Source: a virus
Length of the DNA stretch: 11,455 nt
Virus genome (UHGV): UHGV-0118720
Direction: 5' to 3' (one strand)
Position numbers and translations under genes: made by a program. The first letter of the stretch is position 1, and every line of letters begins with the position of its first letter. Under the pieces are notes generated by a model, which saw nothing but the letters and a program-made list of their open reading frames with translations, made no database searches and had not been told where the DNA came from. Below, one piece after another: positions 2,312 through 10,303 of this stretch.

Positions 2312-4510
2312 ATGGCAGAAAAAAAGATGACTGACTGGCATCGCAAGGTGCTGTGCAACTTTGATAATGCCTGGTCAGCAACGCAGGATATGCGTGAGCA
2401 GATTATTGAGGCTCAACGTTTCGTCAGGGTGTCCGGCGCACAGTGGGAAGGTAGCACAAACGCTGGTTACTCGTTTGATGAGGGCAGGTTTGAGCATTAC
2501 CCGCGCTTTGAACTGAATAAGATTGCCCGTGAATGTGATCGCATCATTGGCGAGTATCGACAGAATCGCATCAGCGTTAAATTCAGACCGAAGGACGATA
2601 AGGCATCGGAAGCGTTAGCCGAAAAGATGAACGGCAAATTCCGCGCTGATTATCAGGAAACATCCGGTGGCGAAGCGTGTGATAACGCATTTGATGATGC
2701 TGTAACGGGCGGATTTGGTTGTTTCCGCATGTGTGCCGATTACGAAGATGAAATGGATCCGAGTAACGAGCAGCGACGCATCAGCCTTCTTCCTGTTTAC
2801 GACCCAGCGACATGCGTCTTCTTCGATCAGGACAGCAAACAATATGACCGCTCTGATGCTATGTGGGCTATGGAAATGTTCTCCATGACGCCCAAAGCGT
2901 TCGAGGCTGAATACCCTGATTCCATCGCGGCAAGCCTTTCTCGAGATGACACTGGCACTCAATATGACTGGTCAACGCCAGATGCCATCTATGTTGGACG
3001 CTACTACGAAGTTCGCATAGAGAAGGTGAAGCTCACGGCGTGGCGCAACCCTGTTAGCGGAGAAACGGCAATCTATGATGAAGAGCAAATCAAAGATGTT
3101 GTTGACGAGCTGACCGATGGCGCATTCGAACTGATTGGTGAGCGGACAGTGAAGAAACGCCGAGTTTATTGCGGTCTTCTGTCTGGTGCTGAATGGCTGG
3201 AAGAGCCGAAGCGTATTCCGGGCGAACATATTCCTCTCATCCCGGTATATGGGCGTCGTTCATTTGTTGATAATCAGGAGCGAATCGAAGGCCACGCAGC
3301 AAAAGCGATGGATGCGCAGCGTCTTGAGAACCTGATGGTTTCCATGATTGCAGATAACGCTACTCAGGCTGGCGGTGATGGCATTCCTGTAGTTGATGTT
3401 GACATGATTCCTGGTCCTCTCGCCACTCATTGGGCAGAGCGCAACAAAAAGCGCCCGGCGTTCCTGCCGATGGTCAGTCTGAAAAACAAAAACGGAGATA
3501 TTACTGCGCAGGCTCAGGTCAGCAGTTATACGCCTCCGACACAAATGCCTCCAGCTCTTGCCGGGCTATTGCAGTACACCGGAACGGCTATTCAGCAAAT
3601 TACAGGTGCGTCGCAGCTTGAGAACATGCCGAGCAACGTCGCCACCGATACCGTTGATAGCATCTTTAACCGGATGGATACGCAGTCCTATATCTACATG
3701 GACAACATGGCTAAATCCATGCGTCGCGCTGGCGTTGTGTGGCTTTCTATGGCGCGTGAGGTCTATGGCAGTGATACGCCGATGCGTATCGTTAATGAGG
3801 ACGGCAGCGATGACGTGGCGCTGATGACTGGTGAAGTGGTTGACCGTCAGACAGGGCAGGTTATCGCGCTTAATGACCTTTCGCAGGGCAACTATGAAGT
3901 GACTGTCGATGTCGGTCAGTCGTTCGCTACTCGCCGTGATGCAACGGTTAAGTCGTTACTTTCCATGCTGGCACTTATCCCGCCAGGAACGCCGAAGCAT
4001 GACCTTGTATCGTCGATGATTCTCGACAATATGGACGGCGAAGGGATGGACGACCTGAAAGAATACAACCGCAATCAGTTGCTTCTGTCTGGAGTTATCA
4101 AGCCGAGAACACCAGAAGAACAGCAGATGGTTGAGCAGGCGAAACAACAACAGGCCAGTCAGCCAGATCCGGCTATGGTTGCAGCGCAAGGTCAGCTTCT
4201 TGCAGGTCAGGCTGAATTGCAGAAAGCGCAGAACGAACAGGCAGCCATTCAGGTTAAAGCATTCCAGGCACAGACTGATGCTCAGGTTGCAGCGGCAAAC
4301 GTTGTGAAAATCCTCGCATCTGCCGATAGCCAGCAGAAATCTGATATCCGCGAGGCTCTGAAACTGCTCGGACAGTTCCAGCAACAGCAAGGAGACAATG
4401 CCCGTGCTGATGCAGAGCTTGTCCTGAAAAGTCAGGCACAGGGCCATGCGCAGCGCATGGACATCAGCAGCATCCTGCAAAAATCAACTCAGCAACAAGC
4501 ACAGCAGTAA
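2312..4510 (+). CDS. Portal protein (P22 gp1-like, with C-terminal helical barrel extension)
   Basis: 732-aa ORF starting 1 nt after the terminase stop. Segments such as KKRRVYCGLL...GEHIPLIPVYG and the C-terminal PEEQQ...DPAMVAAQGQLLAGQAELQKAQN...RMDISSILQ match my recollection of P22 gp1 (about 725 aa). The C-terminus is Gln/Ala-rich and helical. Confidence 0.93.
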   Translation: MAEKKMTDWHRKVLCNFDNAWSATQDMREQIIEAQRFVRVSGAQWEGSTNAGYSFDEGRFEHYPRFELNKIARECDRIIGEYRQNRISVKFRPKDDKASEALAEKMNGKFRADYQETSGGEACDNAFDDAVTGGFGCFRMCADYEDEMDPSNEQRRISLLPVYDPATCVFFDQDSKQYDRSDAMWAMEMFSMTPKAFEAEYPDSIAASLSRDDTGTQYDWSTPDAIYVGRYYEVRIEKVKLTAWRNPVSGETAIYDEEQIKDVVDELTDGAFELIGERTVKKRRVYCGLLSGAEWLEEPKRIPGEHIPLIPVYGRRSFVDNQERIEGHAAKAMDAQRLENLMVSMIADNATQAGGDGIPVVDVDMIPGPLATHWAERNKKRPAFLPMVSLKNKNGDITAQAQVSSYTPPTQMPPALAGLLQYTGTAIQQITGASQLENMPSNVATDTVDSIFNRMDTQSYIYMDNMAKSMRRAGVVWLSMAREVYGSDTPMRIVNEDGSDDVALMTGEVVDRQTGQVIALNDLSQGNYEVTVDVGQSFATRRDATVKSLLSMLALIPPGTPKHDLVSSMILDNMDGEGMDDLKEYNRNQLLLSGVIKPRTPEEQQMVEQAKQQQASQPDPAMVAAQGQLLAGQAELQKAQNEQAAIQVKAFQAQTDAQVAAANVVKILASADSQQKSDIREALKLLGQFQQQQGDNARADAELVLKSQAQGHAQRMDISSILQKSTQQQAQQ

Positions 4511-4600
4511 TTAACTCATAACGTGCAATGGCTGTCTTTATGAGGCCTGGCACCCTATTGCCTTCCGATGGGCTGAACATCGAGTAAACAGGGGTAACAA

Positions 4601-5494
4601 ATGGACCAGATGGCAGAAAACACACCAGAAGTTGAAATCGAACCCGACGCGTCAGAGCAGATTCCTGATGATGTCGAACTGGCTGAAGAAGTCGAAAAAG
4701 CAGATGGCAGTGAGTCCTCAGGAAATGATGCAGAGGAAGATACTGACACTGATGACGACGAATCAGAACAGGAATTCTACTTTGGTGACGAAAAGCTGGA
4801 TTCGCCAACCAGCGAAGATGGCGCAGAGCATGGACTGGTAAAACACCTGCGCAAGACGATTAAAGAGAAAGACCGTGAGCTGAAAGAGCTGATGCGTCAG
4901 TCTCAGAAACCCGTCGAGCAGCAGCCGGTAATCACTCAACCACCGCGAATGCCAAAACTGGATGATGAGGACATCGGTTTCGATGAAGAAATCTACCAGC
5001 AACGCATGGCTAAGTGGGCAGAGGATAACGGCAAGTACCAGCAACAGGAGATGGCTCGCAAGCAGAAGGAGCAGGAGCTTCAGGCTGCCTATCAAGATCG
5101 ATTATCCAAATATCAGCAACGTGTTAAGGCTCTCAAAGTTCCTGGCTATCAGGAAGCTGAGCAGGCCGTACTCGAGGAAATTCCCATCGAGACACAAAAC
5201 GCGATCCTGTTTGAGTCAGAGAAGCCGGAAATCGTTGTTCTGGCGCTCGGTCGCAACGCTGAACTGCGCAAGCAACTGGCAGAAGCTACCAACCCCGTAG
5301 CAATTGGTCGTCTGCTGGAACGTATCGAATCGAAGGCCAGAATCATGCCAAAAGCAAAAACCACGGCAGCCACAACCCCGACAGTTAAGGGGAGCAACGG
5401 CGCAGTAATCAACAACCTCGACAAATTGAAAGCCAAGGCGCTGGAAACTGGTGACTGGACGCCGTATTTCGCCGCTAAAAAGGCAAAAAAATAA
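4601..5494 (+). CDS. Scaffolding protein (P22 gp8-like)
   Basis: 297-aa ORF between portal and coat genes, RBS GGGG at 4591-4594. It has a strongly acidic N-terminal third, charged helical middle, and a basic C-terminal coat-binding-like tail (DKLKAKALETGDWTPYFAAKKAKK). Size is close to P22 gp8. Confidence 0.85.
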   Translation: MDQMAENTPEVEIEPDASEQIPDDVELAEEVEKADGSESSGNDAEEDTDTDDDESEQEFYFGDEKLDSPTSEDGAEHGLVKHLRKTIKEKDRELKELMRQSQKPVEQQPVITQPPRMPKLDDEDIGFDEEIYQQRMAKWAEDNGKYQQQEMARKQKEQELQAAYQDRLSKYQQRVKALKVPGYQEAEQAVLEEIPIETQNAILFESEKPEIVVLALGRNAELRKQLAEATNPVAIGRLLERIESKARIMPKAKTTAATTPTVKGSNGAVINNLDKLKAKALETGDWTPYFAAKKAKK

Positions 5495-5512: not shown

Positions 5513-6766
5513 ATGGCTAACCAATTAGCAAAAGACCTTGAAATCATGTTCGAAAACTACGTTGAAGGCTTTGAGGCCGCCTGCGTAGTTTCCCGTAACG
5601 CTAAAAAATTCCGTCCCGGTGATACAGCAATGCAGCGAGCAGGTGATGTTCTGTATCGTCCGCAGCATTACCACATGAACATTGAAGAAGGCCTCGATCT
5701 CAGCAGCAAAACGCCAACAGCACTGGTTCAGCGCCTTGTTCCTTCTGTGTTCAAGGAGCCGAAAAACATTCTGTACACTCTGGATGCGCGTGAAATGCGT
5801 GACCCTGAGCATAAAACTGAAGCTGGTCGCGCCGCAGGTATGCGCCTTGCTGCACAGATTGACTCTGACCTGATTTCCATGGTCACGCAGCGTGCTACTA
5901 ACGTGATCACAATGGCTGACTCAACCACTGGTTCACAGGGCCGTGATTTGTGGAACTGTGCGGCAGGTATTGATGCCACCATGACGGCGATTGGTGTACC
6001 ACAGGGTATCAACCGCCGCTCTTTCTGGAACCCCTTCAACTACAAAGACCTTGCTGGCGAGCTTGGTCACCGTGCCTATGCTCAGGGCGCAACCCTGACA
6101 GCATACGAAAAAGCGCAGATCCCTCCGGTTGCTTCCTTTGATAGCTACAAGACCGATATTTCTGGTCGTGTTCCGAAGGGTACAGCAACTTCCCTGACGC
6201 TGGCGGCTGAACCTGCGCACAAGGTTGAAGCGAAAGATGCCAACGATATGCCAGTGGATAACCGACAGGGGACCATTACGGTATCTGCATCTGGTTTGCA
6301 GGTTGGCGATGCGTTCACCATTGCAGGGGTGAATTCCGTACACCAGATCACCAAAGATACCACCGGGCAGCCGCAGGTATTCCGCGTTCTGGCAGTAAGC
6401 GGAACGACAGTAACTATCTCCCCGAAAATTCTGCCGCCTGACAACGCGGATGTCGCCAGCCGACCATATGCAAACGTTGATGCTAACGCGGCAAATGGTG
6501 CAGCAATTACCATTCTCAACAAAAATGCCGCACCGGCTAACCTGTTCTGGGCTGATGGTTCTGTTGAACTGATGTACGGCAAACTGGCGTTCCCGACTGG
6601 TCAGGGTCCACAGGTAATGACAGCAACCACCGAGCAGGGCGCTACGCTGATCATGTCTTACGCCTTCGACCACATCAAAGGTGTAACCACAGCTCGTTTC
6701 ACCACTCTGTACGGTTGCTCGGTACTGGTTCCTGAATATACGGGCATCGTTATTGCCGGGCAGTAA
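5513..6766 (+). CDS. Major coat (capsid) protein (P22 gp5-like)
   Basis: 417-aa ORF with RBS GGAG at 5501-5504, following the scaffold gene and followed by a strong hairpin terminator. Size and position match P22-like coat proteins; a conserved-looking motif FWADGSVEL is present. Confidence 0.9.
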   Translation: MANQLAKDLEIMFENYVEGFEAACVVSRNAKKFRPGDTAMQRAGDVLYRPQHYHMNIEEGLDLSSKTPTALVQRLVPSVFKEPKNILYTLDAREMRDPEHKTEAGRAAGMRLAAQIDSDLISMVTQRATNVITMADSTTGSQGRDLWNCAAGIDATMTAIGVPQGINRRSFWNPFNYKDLAGELGHRAYAQGATLTAYEKAQIPPVASFDSYKTDISGRVPKGTATSLTLAAEPAHKVEAKDANDMPVDNRQGTITVSASGLQVGDAFTIAGVNSVHQITKDTTGQPQVFRVLAVSGTTVTISPKILPPDNADVASRPYANVDANAANGAAITILNKNAAPANLFWADGSVELMYGKLAFPTGQGPQVMTATTEQGATLIMSYAFDHIKGVTTARFTTLYGCSVLVPEYTGIVIAGQ

Positions 6767-6807: not shown

Positions 6808-6996
6808 ATGGCACGAACAATGCTCTATAAGCCTGGCAACATGATCACCTGTGGTCAGTTTGCTGTCGATTACATCATTGTTGATGACGAAGAAGTTAAA
6901 TCTCACCTGAAAAAAGGTTGGGTAAAAACTCCTGAAGAAACCGCAACGAAGCAAAAAGTGGCTAAGGCGGAAGAAGATGGCGAAAACGAAGGGTGA
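6808..6996 (+). CDS. Hypothetical small protein (62 aa) between the coat and gp4-like genes
   Basis: ATG at 6808 preceded by GGGAGAAGG (6797-6805). The ORF track's TTG start at 6769 lies inside the terminator hairpin and is unlikely. The 3' end overlaps the gp4-like gene start by 20 nt in another frame. C-terminus is Lys/Glu-rich. Confidence 0.45.
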   Translation: MARTMLYKPGNMITCGQFAVDYIIVDDEEVKSHLKKGWVKTPEETATKQKVAKAEEDGENEG

Positions 6997-7438
6997 TCTC
7001 GTTCTAAAGGCTTTACGAAAAGCCGGGCTGTATTCCAATGCCACGTTGACAGATGCTGACCCTCAGGCAATTGAAGATGCCATTAATGACCTCGAAGACA
7101 TGATGGCAGCATGGCAGGCGAAAGGTATCGAGCTTGGGTATCAGTTTGCTGATACAGAAAACGGCATCATGCCGTTACCTGACGATGATTCAGGTATCCC
7201 TGCATGGGCAAATGATGGCGTCGCTTTGAAACTCGCTGTGCAAGTGTGCATGGATAACGTCATTCAGCCGTCGGATGCTCTCCTTACCGCTGCTGACTGT
7301 GCATATCAGACAATCTGTATCGCTTTAACCAAAATACCACCACTTGAGCGGCGAAATGACATGCCTCGCGGTAGTGGTAACAAAAGCGCGTTTACGTGGA
7401 ATCGGTTTTACATCGAGAAAGATGATCCGAGTACGTGA
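6977..7438 (+). CDS. Head-to-tail adaptor / portal-closure protein (P22 gp4-like)
   Basis: 153-aa ORF. The N-terminus KTKGDLVLKALRKAGLYSNATLTDADPQAIEDAINDLEDMMAAW and C-terminal PRGSGN motif match my recollection of P22 gp4. It is syntenic between the coat and gp10-like genes. Confidence 0.88.
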   Translation: MAKTKGDLVLKALRKAGLYSNATLTDADPQAIEDAINDLEDMMAAWQAKGIELGYQFADTENGIMPLPDDDSGIPAWANDGVALKLAVQVCMDNVIQPSDALLTAADCAYQTICIALTKIPPLERRNDMPRGSGNKSAFTWNRFYIEKDDPST

Positions 7439-7447
7439 GGTGAATAA

Positions 7448-7552
7448 ATGCCGATTCAGCAACTTCCGCTTATGAAAGGTGTCGGCAAAGATTTCCGAAA
7501 CGCTGACTATATCGACTATCTGCCAGTGAATATGCTGGCAATTTTGATATAA
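7448..7552 (+). pseudogene. Truncated 5' remnant (34 codons) of the gp10-like tail-hub gene, displaced by the insertion
   Basis: RBS GAGG at 7437-7440, then [31 protein letters not shown] followed by ILI and a stop. The first 31 codons align codon-for-codon with the start of the full-length gene at 8121; similarity ends exactly at 7540/7541. Confidence 0.8.
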
Positions 7553-7553
7553 T
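7545..7553 (+). promoter_or_regulatory. Candidate extended -10 promoter element (TGaTATAAT) for the endonuclease gene
   Basis: TG at 7545-7546 and a perfect TATAAT at 7548-7553, about 36 nt upstream of the endonuclease ATG. No good -35 is seen, which extended -10 promoters often lack. Motif match only. Confidence 0.35.
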
Positions 7554-7588
7554 AAGTACATGAAAAATCGAAACTTTAAGGAGTAGAT

Positions 7589-8173
7589 ATGCTTTCTGAG
7601 AATGCTAAAGATATACCTGGATTTGAAGGTGTTTATGCCGTAACAGAAGATGGCAGGGTATATTCTCACTCACGTGTTGTTAAGGCTGCGCATGGCAGCA
7701 CGCAACTCAGAAAGGGGCGCTGGTTAAAGCCTAAAATCAATCAGGGAAGGGTGCTTTATAATATCGGAGCAAAATGGACTTTTGCCCATCGAATCGTTGC
7801 AATGACATTCCTGCCAAATCCTGAAAACAAGCCTCAGGTAAATCATATTGATGGCAATCCACTCAATAATAACGTCAATAATCTTGAGTGGTGCACTCAA
7901 AGCGAAAACATCAAACATGCATACGCCACCGGATTAAAGAAGCCAATCAAGTTTTTCGGAACCAAGCACCCAAAACACAAGTTGAGTGATGACGATGTTC
8001 TTGCAATCAAGTCATCAAAAGAAAGCTTGTCAGTAATTGCGGCTAAGTACGGGATATCTAAGACCTGGGCAAGTAGGCTAAAGCGTGATGCTAACTGGGT
8101 TCATATAAAGGTTGATTCCAATGGCAATACAACAACTACCACTAATGAAGGGATTGGGGAAAAGTGCGGTTAA
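7589..8173 (+). CDS. HNH homing endonuclease (NUMOD4-like N-terminal motif, HNH_3-type catalytic core, C-terminal HTH-like DNA-binding module)
   Basis: Own RBS AAGGAG at 7578-7583, 5-nt spacer. Motifs: IPGFEGVYAVTEDGRVYS (NUMOD4-like), HRIVAMTF...VNHIDGNPLNNNVNNLEWCTQSENIKH (HNH core), LSDDDVLAIKSSKESLSVIAAKYGISKTWASRLKR (HTH-like). The last 18 codons overlap the gp10-like gene start out of frame. Confidence 0.85.
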   Translation: MLSENAKDIPGFEGVYAVTEDGRVYSHSRVVKAAHGSTQLRKGRWLKPKINQGRVLYNIGAKWTFAHRIVAMTFLPNPENKPQVNHIDGNPLNNNVNNLEWCTQSENIKHAYATGLKKPIKFFGTKHPKHKLSDDDVLAIKSSKESLSVIAAKYGISKTWASRLKRDANWVHIKVDSNGNTTTTTNEGIGEKCG

Positions 8174-9539
8174 TGCTGATTATATAGACCAACTTCCAGT
8201 CAATCTTTTAGCTACGCCCAAGGAGGTGTTGAATTCATCGGGATATCTTCGCTCATTCCCGGGCATTGCAAAACGTTCTGATGTGAACGGTGTATCTCGC
8301 GGCGTCGAGTACAACATGGCGCAGAATGCTGTTTATCGTGTGTGTGGTGGCAAGCTGTACAAAGGAGAAAGTGAAGTCGGTGACGTTGCCGGAAGTGGTC
8401 GCGTATCAATGGCGCATGGTCGTATATCACAGGCGGTAGGGGTTAACGGGAAACTGGTCGAGTATCGCTATGATGGCACGATTAAAACCGTCTCAAACTG
8501 GCCTACAGACAGCGGATTCACGCAGTATGAGTTAGGATCAGTCCGCGACATTACGCGCTTACGTGGGCGTTATGCGTGGTCAAAAGACGGCACTGATTCA
8601 TGGTTTATCACTGACCTTGAAGACGAATCGCATCCTGACCGTTACAGCGCACAATATCGCGCAGAATCGCAGCCTGACGGCATCATCGGCATAGGAACAT
8701 GGCGAGACTTCATCGTCTGCTTTGGTTCATCGACGATTGAATATTTCTCCCTGACTGGCGCAACCACAGTTGGTGCTGCTTTGTATGTCGCACAGCCATC
8801 ACTGATGGTGCAGAAAGGCATTGCCGGGACTTACTGCAAAACGCCATTCGCTGATTCGTATGCGTTCATCAGCAATCCGGCAACAGGTGCGCCGTCTGTA
8901 TACATCATCGGCTCCGGTCAGGTGTCACCAATCGCCAGCGCGAGCATTGAGAAAATCCTCCGCTCCTACACTGCTGATGAACTGGCTGATGGTGTGATGG
9001 AATCGCTGCGATTTGATGCTCATGAGTTGCTGATTATCCACCTTCCGCGCCATGTTCTCGTGTACGACGCATCTTCAAGCGCCAATGGTCCGCAATGGTG
9101 TGTGCTGAAAACAGGTCTGTATGACGATGTGTACCGCGCTATCGACTTCATTTACGAAGGCAATCAGATAACGTGCGGCGATAAACTGGAGTCCGTGACC
9201 GGGAAATTGCAATTCGACATCAGCAGCCAGTACGACAAGCAACAGGAACACCTGCTGTTTACTCCACTGTTCAAAGCGGATAACGCCAGATGCTTCGATC
9301 TGGAGGTGGAATCATCCACTGGCGTAGCTCAGTACGCCGACCGCCTGTTCCTCTCTGCAACCACTGACGGCATAAATTACGGGCGTGAGCAGATGATTGA
9401 ACAGAATGAACCGTTCGTTTACGACAAGCGTGTTTTGTGGAAGCGTGTCGGGCGCATCAGGAAAAACATTGGCTTCAAATTGCGCGTTATCACGAAGTCA
9501 CCTGTCACTCTGTCTGGCTGCCAGATAAGGATTGAGTAA
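8121..9539 (+). CDS. Tail hub / needle-socket protein (P22 gp10-like), full length with a chimeric N-terminus
   Basis: 472 codons from ATG 8121; the ORF track's 8112 start is TTG and less likely. From about codon 32 ([19 protein letters not shown]...) to the end it matches my recollection of P22 gp10. The first 31 codons are a recoded variant of the upstream remnant. Confidence 0.9.
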
Positions 9540-10303
9540 TGGCGGATTCGAATCTCAATGTGCCGGTAATCATTCAGGCTGCACGGCTCGACACATCAGT
9601 CCTTCCACGCAATATCTTCTCGCAGTCGTATCTGCTTTACGTTATCGCACAGGGCACTGATGTTGGTAACGTGGCTAACAAGGCCAACGAGGCCGGACAG
9701 GGCGCTTATGATGCACAGGTCAGGAACGATGAGCAGGATGTGATTCTCGCTGACCATGAGCAGCGAATTTCTGCTGCGGAAGCAACGCTTGTTAATCATG
9801 AGGAGCGAATCAGCCAGGCAGAATCAACTCTTCAGGAACATGAAACGCGCATCGATGCTCTTGAGTATGCCACTACTCGTAAGAAATCAGAGGTTGTTTA
9901 CTCTGGCGTATCAGTAACAATCCCGACAGCGCCTACCAACCTTGTTAGCCTGCTGAAAACGCTCACGCCGTCATCCGGCACGTTGGCACCATTCTTCGAC
10001 ACCGTTAACAACAAGATGGTTGTGTTCAACGAGAACAAAACTTTGTTCTTCAAGCTGTCTATTGTCGGGACGTGGCCCAGCGGAACCACCAACAGGTCAA
10101 TGCAGCTAACATTTTCCGGCTCTGTTCCTGACACACTGGTCAGCAGTCGTAATGCGGCGACAACAACCGACAACATCCTGTTAGCTACGTTCTTCAGCGT
10201 GGATAAAGACGGATCTCTTGCCACAAATGGCAGTACGTTAACCATCCAGTCAAATGGTGCGGCGTTTACTGCCACAACCATCAAGATAATCGCGGAGCAG
10301 TGA
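9539..10303 (+). CDS. Tail needle protein (P22 gp26-like N-terminus and coiled coil, plus a C-terminal knob domain)
   Basis: ATG overlaps the gp10-like stop (TAATG). The N-terminus [18 protein letters not shown]...[14 protein letters not shown]...[13 protein letters not shown]...DEQDV matches my recollection of gp26. A short coiled coil with three 14-residue repeats is followed by a roughly 140-aa Thr/Ser-rich beta-type domain absent from P22 gp26. Confidence 0.88.
9755..9880 (+). repeat. Three tandem 42-nt (14-codon) repeats encoding the coiled-coil segment of the tail needle
   Basis: Units begin with CAT GAG/GAA at 9755, 9797 and 9839, encoding [14 protein letters not shown] / [14 protein letters not shown] / [14 protein letters not shown]. 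Confidence 0.55.

Follow-up and report, generated by a model that had tools for sequence, protein, structure and literature searches.

A 53-nt overlap between an endonuclease gene and the tail-hub gene of a P22-like phage as the probable seam of a mobile homing-endonuclease cassette

The stretch of DNA considered here, 11,455 nt of UHGV virus genome UHGV-0118720 (the window, always meant at its full length), contains the late (virion) operon of a P22-like podophage of the Lederbergvirus type. In this operon the open reading frame (ORF) of an endonuclease, 7589-8173, runs out of frame into the 5' end of the tail-hub gene, gp10; a preliminary description of the same DNA had reported this overlap at 8121-8173, and we confirmed it (53 nt, with the gp10 ATG at 8121). 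We consider it likely that the overlap is the right seam of a mobile, free-standing homing-endonuclease cassette of ~0.7 kb residing inside the essential gp10 gene, after codon 31; the overlap would then exist because the cassette formed a new gp10 5' end within the homing endonuclease gene (HEG). The meaning of the overlap was changed by a second, truncated copy of the gp10 N-terminus found upstream (7448-7552), which was absent from the preliminary description. The features that carry the argument, with their Shine-Dalgarno (SD) sequences, are listed below.

6977-7438, + strand: gp4, the head-to-tail adaptor (Pfam P22_Tail-4, E = 8.7e-41); upstream neighbour, within the left homology flank
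7448-7555, + strand: orphan remnant of the 5' end of gp10 (tail hub), with native codons 1-31 at 7448-7540 and the native SD GAGGTGA
7521-7540, + strand: hairpin-capable inverted repeat TGCCAGTG-AATA-TGCTGGCA, from a terminator-like scan
7541-8242, + strand: heterologous insert, the cassette proper (~700 bp), delimited by alignment with empty sites and by the two-piece matches of empty-site phages
7545-7553, + strand: TGATATAAT, an extended -10-like motif, candidate sigma-70 promoter; it also provides the remnant's stop codons
7566-7588, + strand: endonuclease leader, with the block AATCGAAAC at 7566-7574 and the SD AAGGAG at 7578-7583 (5-nt spacer)
7589-8173, + strand: HEG, 194 aa, with NUMOD4, HNH_3 and three C-terminal helices, I-HmuI-like
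8108-8111, + strand: weak SD AAGG (9-nt spacer) for the rebuilt gp10 start, within the endonuclease gene
8121-8173, + strand: endonuclease/gp10 overlap, gp10 codons 1-18 out of frame with the endonuclease tail
8121-8242, + strand: re-coded, cassette-borne replacement of gp10 codons 1-40
8121-9539, + strand: functional hybrid gp10 (tail hub), 472 aa, cassette N-terminus joined to the resident body

The edges of the insert were seen by comparison with phages whose gp10 is uninterrupted. In Sf101, CUS-3 and phiKp_30, gp4 is followed directly by a gp10 that matches the window through codon 31 (...GTGAATATG(C/T)TGGC(A/T)). Beyond that codon an unrelated sequence of ~700 bp (7541-8242) follows in the window and in Salmonella phage UPF_BP1, and the match to the uninterrupted gene begins again at codon 41 (GGATATCTTCGC...). 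The insert replaces native codons 32-40, with a net gain of ~673 bp. The remnant left of it hardly differs from the start of gp10 in the same three phages; its 31 codons are followed by the cassette-derived triplets ATT TTG ATA (ILI) and by a tandem in-frame pair of stops, TAA at 7550-7552 and TAA at 7553-7555. The HEG has an ORF of its own, in another frame than gp10, and is embedded in neither an intron nor an intein; it lies within gp10, after codon 31, and not in the intergenic position by which a free-standing HEG is usually recognized. The gp10 gene is whole again because the cassette supplies a new 5' end. The same arrangement is present in the RefSeq/PGAP annotation of E. coli prophages, where the 93-nt remnant is labeled a gp10 pseudogene 'missing C-terminus' and is followed by an HNH endonuclease and then by a full gp10, with the same 53-nt overlap.

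Such an architecture misleads annotation. In UPF_BP1 (L001; NC_047875.1 / KX776161.1) gp10 occupies 3675-5093 of the locus, 3675 being the true, overlapping start (472 aa); both deposited records begin the gene internally (locus 3783, 436 aa), 36 codons too short, and leave the 93-nt upstream remnant unannotated.

The inverted repeat at 7521-7540 (followed by ATTTTG) spans the last codons of the remnant and abuts the insertion junction; native alleles carry a weaker version of it. The idea of a conserved terminator was rejected, as the hairpin is not conserved in the L008-type cassette, and the repeat is thus probably plain native gp10 sequence. It might be related to the cleavage site, or its position at the junction might be coincidental.

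The locus shows a presence/absence polymorphism. Among 5,426 complete E. coli genomes, the gp4-gp10 junction is uninterrupted in 874, and 18 carry the cassette (≥99% identity); it is also present, with an identical junction, in UPF_BP1 and in 26 IMG/VR viral contigs. UPF_BP1, whose deposited record is that of a phage isolate with its host given, combines a P22-type gp4 and a P22-type remnant with the same cassette at the same nucleotide, and an identical HEG protein (P0006) occurs in three different phage backgrounds. Over 27 loci the cassette is 98.9-99.9% identical; in the flanks of these loci identity is 59-99% for gp4 (several types), 83-98% for the remnant, 92-98% for the gp10 body and 62-97% for the needle gene. 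Accordingly, diversity (pi) does not exceed 0.02 from ~7523 to ~8272 and is 0.03-0.39 just outside, on both sides; in the E. coli-type loci the tract of near identity stops ~30 nt past the re-coded segment. We counted 18 remnant haplotypes in 30 loci; the differences are nearly all synonymous, and many of the variants occur in native gp10 alleles. Varied remnants around a near-invariant cassette would be expected if each homing event converted a different functional recipient gene. An element more conserved than its flanks is the population signature of homing or recent lateral spread, and from it we infer homing itself.

As for individual loci, the whole gp10 of UPF_BP1 is ~95% identical to that of the window and 70-87% identical to that of the P22-type phage BTP1 (L013), and the mosaic boundary in UPF_BP1 coincides with the left junction of the cassette. 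This is suggestive of co-conversion of gp10 along with the cassette (a long tract), or else of ordinary mosaicism.

Furthermore, the cassette is found in more distant forms. Homologs of the HEG at 83, 82, 72 and 69% identity were traced to contigs, and all have the same layout: gp4, an orphan gp10 5' fragment with intact ATG, TG[AC]TATAATAA, AATCGAAAC, GGAGTAGA[TC]ATG, the HEG and an overlapping new gp10 start; in short, remnant-TGNTATAATAA-HEG-gp10. There are five diverged cassette lineages in all, with HEG identity down to ~68%. UPF_BP1 and four further diverged lineages likewise have overlaps of 47-53 nt at this position, so the overlap is not a chance feature of a single sequence. The motif in front of the HEG stays at a constant distance, 96-97 nt, from the ATG of the remnant, even in L007, where the orphan fragment has acquired a premature stop and a decayed 3' end; this constancy points to a single ancestral insertion point. 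When the HEG protein was compared with genome contigs, only distant HNH genes of unrelated bacteria were found (≤49% identity over most of the protein), and no cassette loci. In L007 (Logan ERR14928264; 3560-5353) gp10 was called at 597 aa, not 472, which suggests a C-terminal extension or a fusion.

The family has at least two more HEG types (55% and 43% identity), located elsewhere, at the gp10/needle junction of other P22-like phages: L005 and L006 (E. coli prophages, 2024-2569) and L120-L131, L139 and L143 (IMG/VR). These sister elements share with the cassette the leader, AATCGAAAC...GGAGTAGATATG, and the placement of the downstream ATG inside terminal AAT-GG codons: the sister enzyme ends ...HVNG*, and the ATG of the needle gene is embedded in AAT GGC TGA. 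Unlike the cassette, they are simple intergenic insertions with an 8-nt overlap and have no duplicated fragment, no TGNTATAAT and no read-through tail.

The two copies of the gp10 5' end in the window are related as proteins and very different as DNA. Remnant and new copy have 66% nucleotide identity, a proportion of synonymous differences (pS) of 0.95 and a proportion of nonsynonymous differences (pN) of 0.17-0.19, and their longest identical run is 5 nt; within any one genome the longest run common to both copies is 5-9 nt. The native allele of Sf101 is 64% identical to the new copy and ~97% identical to the remnant. Averaged over all pairs, pS is 0.92 when new copies are compared with native ones, 0.71 among native copies and 0.65 among new ones. 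Comparison with the conserved native sequence over 60 nt across the junction shows 20 changed positions in the new copy, e.g. AGC AGC became TCA TCG. The new 5' copies also have residues foreign to native genes (LP.N[LC]LATPKEVLN...), and these diverge along with the endonuclease. No donor lineage with a native gp10 start of the cassette type was found by distant blastn and tblastn searches of 50,697 phage records, in which the best native match to the new copy was 73% identical in nucleotides and 85% in amino acids.

Among lineages, pN/pS of the new copy in the gp10 frame is 0.12-0.50. This is purifying selection, and the new copy is therefore a translated start. Read from ATG 8121, the 472-aa product matches Pfam Phage_stabilise over residues 4-472 (E = 7.5e-299); the start assigned mechanically to this ORF, TTG 8112, is not the homologous gp10 start. 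The N-terminus of the tail hub lies in a lamin-B1-like domain inserted between two adaptor subunits (PMC9728967). The cassette changes 8 of the 40 N-terminal residues of gp10, yet it co-occurs with several gp4 types.

Within the overlap the constraint is specific to one frame. Among close cassette variants, pS is 0.52-0.72 and pN 0.06 when the segment is read as gp10; read as HEG, pS is 0-0.10 and pN 0.16-0.25. The preliminary description had taken the low-complexity end of the endonuclease for incidental read-through, with the functional protein ending near ...VDS; the read-through part of this view was borne out, and the functional end is to be moved slightly downstream, to about ...VDSNG. 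At least 13 homologs (≤55% identity) terminate at '...W.H.NG', ahead of the tail, as seen in the homolog alignment; the C-terminal extension is confined to the clade with the gp10-5' cassette, and there it is the least conserved part. In the AlphaFold model the last helix ends at residue 165, and residues 179-194, with pLDDT of 33-36, are predicted to be disordered. These data support the conclusion that the last ~15-17 residues of the endonuclease are read-through into gp10. The ancestral enzyme ended at Asn-Gly, with the ATG of the downstream gene embedded in those codons; in the window the codons of the enzyme read tcc AAT GGc (...S-N-G) and those of gp10 read a ATG Gca (M-A). As no stop follows AAT GGc in the window, the HEG ORF continues to the first stop in that frame.

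A programmed frameshift or a HEG-gp10 fusion in the overlap was also considered and rejected. No in-frame slippery heptamer was seen by eye; the overlap is conserved across lineages only as gp10 coding requires, and the substitution pattern is that of the gp10 frame.

The enzyme itself is an I-HmuI-like homing endonuclease of the NUMOD4/HNH type, with cleavage activity predicted from its sequence. Pfam gave HNH_3 (PF13392) with E = 1.9e-10 and 40.6 bits (cutoff 24.8) and NUMOD4 with E = 1.3e-8 and 35.3 bits (cutoff 23.4); residues H86, N98, N107 and H110 of the HNH motif are invariant across 19 homologs. The only significant relative in PDB is I-HmuI (1U3E), with E = 1e-8 over residues 7-116 by sequence. 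With the predicted fold, Foldseek returned 1u3e_M as the sole match at E ≤ 0.001 (probability 1.00 over 197 columns), with a TM score of only 0.32. The AlphaFold model has helices at 134-165 and pLDDT below 50 in the tail.

Some HEG copies are damaged. In L175 (E. coli ES5, NZ_CP133871.1; 947-1530) a 1-nt deletion at HEG nt 236 splits the gene into two ORFs, while the remnant and gp10 are undamaged; homing endonuclease genes are expected to pass through such a stage of decay in their life cycle. Decay is also suggested by two truncated HEG clusters, P0005 (140 aa) and P0007 (108 aa). Another observation concerns exchange of parts: positions 7565-7728 of the window (the leader and the first ~46 HEG codons) have 88% DNA identity to positions 2001-2163 of L005, with its HEG at the gp10/needle junction, and beyond the shared start the two proteins are only ~50% identical. 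It looks as if HEG genes exchanged modules, combining a common N-terminal module with different DNA-binding parts.

Conservation of the endonuclease leader extends to all five diverged cassette lineages and to the sister HEG of the gp10/needle junction. Upstream of this leader, TGNTATAAT occurs once in the window (7545-7553); each of 7 other cassette loci likewise has a single occurrence at the corresponding site, and 6 cassette-less loci have none. Its distance to the homologous HEG start is 42-44 nt. From this conservation we would give about even odds to TGATATAAT acting as a promoter for the endonuclease. A generic scan of 6900-8400 for sigma-70 -35/-10 pairs gave 0 sites, with no -35 element; since the scan was empty, the conserved extended -10 motif is all that the promoter idea can draw on. 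Promoters of the extended -10 type require no -35 element, and the empty scan is consistent with such a promoter. Besides the scan, several facts speak against promoter function. The count of TGNTATAAT in the window is unremarkable (0.23 expected; 41 of 200 shuffles have at least one), and the motif is absent from the sister HEG at the gp10/needle junction. One locus reads TATGAT in place of TATAAT; moreover, the role of the motif as a source of stop codons could by itself explain its conservation. L097 (IMG/VR 2541047825_000009, at ~2460) is the sole cassette copy with TGATATGAT rather than TGATATAAT; here the stops are kept (TGA TAA) and the -10 consensus is weakened.

We propose the following course of events. 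The leader motif would halt translation of the displaced gp10 fragment (TAA TAA) and would probably serve as an extended -10 promoter. Fused to the 3' end of the enzyme gene are a new SD, a new ATG and re-coded codons 1-40, which join resident gp10 in frame at codon 41; full-length gp10 would be made from this new start, and of the old one an orphan of 31 codons persists upstream. Were the cell to contain a cassette-free relative as well, the enzyme would nick or cut the conserved native gp10 at a putative target near codons 25-41, and the break would be repaired off the cassette-bearing genome, with the orphan fragment as the left arm and the gp10 body as the right arm, so that the cassette would be copied in. 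The presumed site would no longer exist in the cassette genome, being interrupted by the left junction and altered by re-coding on the right side, and this would give self-immunity. Another effect of the re-coding would be that the stretches shared by the two gp10 5' copies are too short for the recombination that would otherwise remove the cassette.

With respect to origin, the sister elements suggest that the default of this family is a compact intergenic insertion with the downstream start placed in the last codons of the enzyme. A P22-like phage could have been invaded by a similar element that was once located between gp4 and gp10 in a lineage whose gp10 had diverged. On the right, the gp10 body would have allowed homologous repair; on the left, where gp4 types with only ~60% identity could not pair, repair at the break (codon 31) would have been illegitimate and would have produced the orphan fragment, which could then have served as a left homology arm for precise homing into phages with a conserved gp10 5' end. 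The same logic of origin has been proposed for mitochondrial gene hybrids (PMC3630166).

One could go further and suppose that the cassette is an actively maintained design with three functions: its own promoter, selected re-coding and a retained orphan arm. Taken jointly these claims seem rather unlikely to hold. If they did, a sigma-70 extended -10 promoter would express the endonuclease independently of the late operon, possibly from a resident prophage, and a lysogen could attack, convert or exclude superinfecting cassette-free P22-like relatives. The near-total synonymous re-coding would have been selected, for self-immunity and for absence of recombinational excision, and not merely inherited; the orphan would be kept as a left arm permitting homing into phages whose gp4 is only ~60% identical.

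A number of points weigh against the mobile cassette as we describe it. The excess of synonymous divergence rests on ~21-28 synonymous sites, and the GC content at third codon positions is lower in the cassette (0.26-0.48 versus 0.52-0.68), which partly explains that divergence; the divergence could reflect foreign origin rather than selection for re-coding. Enzymes of the I-HmuI type are nickases, and the step from a nick to homing is outside the proposed model. The cassette is rare, at ~2% of such E. coli loci, and at least one copy (ES5) is frameshifted, hence the copies, or some of them, might be relics without activity; the sequence patterns could in part be mimicked by general recombination, P22-like phages being mosaic. 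These last points lead to an alternative in which the element entered once, its enzyme is inactive or never targeted gp10, and the cassette spread through general homologous recombination. The late operons of P22-like phages are indeed strongly mosaic, as the needle and gp4 identities given above demonstrate. However, nearly every copy has an unbroken HEG ORF, and the HNH residues do not vary; the 5-20-fold drop in diversity is limited to the cassette, with edges within tens of bases on both sides; 18 remnant haplotypes surround an essentially invariant cassette, and the identical site is used in E. coli-type and in Salmonella P22-type backgrounds. Such a pattern is predicted by repeated recent homing and would be hard to get from random mosaicism. 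We regard the relic as quite unlikely.

The preliminary description had read the locus as an ordinary overlapping pair: it noted the weakness of the tail-hub ribosome binding site (RBS), AAGG with a 9-nt spacer inside the endonuclease gene, and supposed that tail-hub translation depends on coupling to that of the endonuclease. In the form considered here, an endonuclease stands between gp4 and gp10, and gp10 is translated by coupling because its SD is weak. The overlap and the weak AAGG are real, and ribosomes on the endonuclease mRNA, recruited by a strong SD, necessarily cross the gp10 start. Nevertheless, the HEG stop (8171-8173) is located 50 nt downstream of the gp10 ATG, which is not a classic stop/start junction; folding of 8071-8170 around the gp10 start gave no significant structure that would hide the RBS, the fold being no more stable than those of shuffled sequences (z = -0.25); diverged cassettes have strong SDs, GAGGTG and GGAGAAG, at the position homologous to the weak AAGG. 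In the ES5 prophage, known as prophage sequence only, gp10 is intact behind the HEG broken by the 1-nt deletion. Gp10 is a hexamer, of which six copies are needed per virion (PMC9728967), and weak independent initiation may thus suffice. Coupling is neither needed nor supported by these observations, so that the earlier interpretation was half right, correct for the tail and unsupported for coupling. An ordinary pair also leaves the orphan gp10 copy and the insertion polymorphism unexplained, and it appears very unlikely. We give still far less credence to self-splicing of 7541-8213, or to a split gene producing a 34-aa remnant peptide and a truncated gp10, as in the HEG-split nrdA of phage Aeh1. 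Joining 7540 to 8214 does give an in-frame gp10, the depositors of UPF_BP1 chose an internal gp10 start (436 aa), and the remnant retains its native SD and ATG. Against this, an Rfam scan of 7300-8400 at E ≤ 10 found no group I or II intron and no other credible RNA family (its three matches, MicA, ceN53 and SAM-SAH, with E of 0.58, 5.3 and 9.1, were all far under gathering scores); only ~46 nt and ~40 nt lie outside the ORF, insufficient for a ribozyme core, and in L007 the remnant is itself interrupted by an early stop and degraded at its 3' end. Neither splicing nor a two-piece protein is necessary, given that codons 1-40 are present as a full in-frame copy that starts with its own ATG and is conserved as protein in five lineages. 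Hardly more credible is a local tandem duplication of the gp10 5' end into which the endonuclease was inserted later, in which case the new copy would not belong to a mobile unit. The same 31 codons do occur twice in direct orientation, at a distance of 673 bp; but the copies differ at ~95% of synonymous sites with the remnant near-identical to native alleles, the cassette-specific residues of the new copy accompany the endonuclease across lineages, and the new copy shares the low-diversity block with the HEG.

The other genes of the late operon in the window, in order, are

895-2310: large terminase
2312-4510: portal
4601-5494: scaffold
5513-6766: coat
9539-10303: needle gene, of the Sf6 type with a C-terminal knob (Pfam Phage_tail_NK)

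and genes of ejection proteins come after the needle gene. The needle gene is the most mosaic gene among the cassette-bearing loci. The MicA small RNA-like match mentioned above is on the minus strand inside gp4 (7331-7395; 23 bits versus a gathering score of 41) and is almost certainly a chance hit. The host family P22/Sf6/CUS-3 is among the best genetic and structural phage systems, and there the target site, co-conversion, the orphan as an arm and the cost of a foreign gp10 N-terminus docking on the gp4 adaptor (PMC9728967) are open to direct test.

In a search of the literature we found no description of this endonuclease, of UPF_BP1 or of gp10-associated HEGs in P22-like phages; parallels were sought among better known systems. 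I-HmuI of Bacillus phage SPO1 is a strand-specific nickase encoded within a group I intron of the DNA polymerase gene. The enzyme in the window resembles it in having an N-terminal beta domain (the NUMOD4 region), an HNH motif and a C-terminal helical DNA-binding module, as well as in size (174 residues in I-HmuI, ~177 functional residues here), with only ~22% sequence identity; it differs in being encoded without an intron.

The T4 mobA/gene 60 cassette, reportedly treated by Bonocora et al. in 2011, is also a HEG cassette in an essential coding sequence; in both cases extra sequence saves function and alters the target, and the same site is occupied in many phages. There, however, gene function is kept with two subunits and ribosomal bypassing, whereas here a substitute N-terminal segment with a start codon yields a single polypeptide. 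The T4 arrangement pairs a free-standing HNH HEG with a 50-nt bypass element in the topoisomerase gene (bioRxiv 10.1101/2022.08.31.505936). With intronless homing of the T4 seg and mob genes, and with 'HEG-islands', our case shares a free-standing HEG beside an essential structural gene, presence/absence polymorphism and a sharp identity boundary. In the 'HEG-islands' of Barth et al., fragments of essential genes beside phage HEGs were proposed, in a passing remark, to be recombination substrates (PMC10055350); the orphan gp10 fragment matches this idea. Unlike typical intergenic HEGs, the cassette combines a fragment, a replacement 5' end, an embedded start and re-coding in one compact unit, in five lineages.

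The closest parallel in logic comes from 'gene hybrids' associated with the mobile endonuclease ORFs (mORFs) of fungal mitochondria, in atp6 of Allomyces macrogynus and in atp6, atp9, cox2 and nad3 of Glomus (PMC3630166, citing Paquin et al. 1994). In them a foreign C-terminal gene segment was inserted together with an ORF, and the native C-terminus was displaced downstream (PMC3630166). In both systems an endonuclease ORF separates two copies of a gene terminus, an inserted one of foreign appearance and the displaced native one, and the hybrid gene is functional. Inserted copies of mORF genes have 64-81% identity versus 91-98% for the native remnants, to be compared with 66% versus ~97% here; the protein is conserved in both. 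The differences are that the 5' end is replaced here, with a new SD and ATG, and the 3' end in mORFs, in mirror image; and that mORFs encode LAGLIDADG or GIY-YIG enzymes, often in phase, whereas we see an HNH, I-HmuI-like enzyme with an out-of-frame overlap, a phage host and a promoter-like motif. The cassette works like the mitochondrial gene hybrids and is not a member of their group by descent; the mirror-image likeness suggests convergent evolution of the same solution. To our knowledge, HEGs have been thought to survive only where insertion is harmless: in introns, in inteins and between genes. The cassette would represent a fourth route in phages, entering an essential virion gene and bringing along a re-written replacement for what it displaces, including a start embedded in its own last codons.

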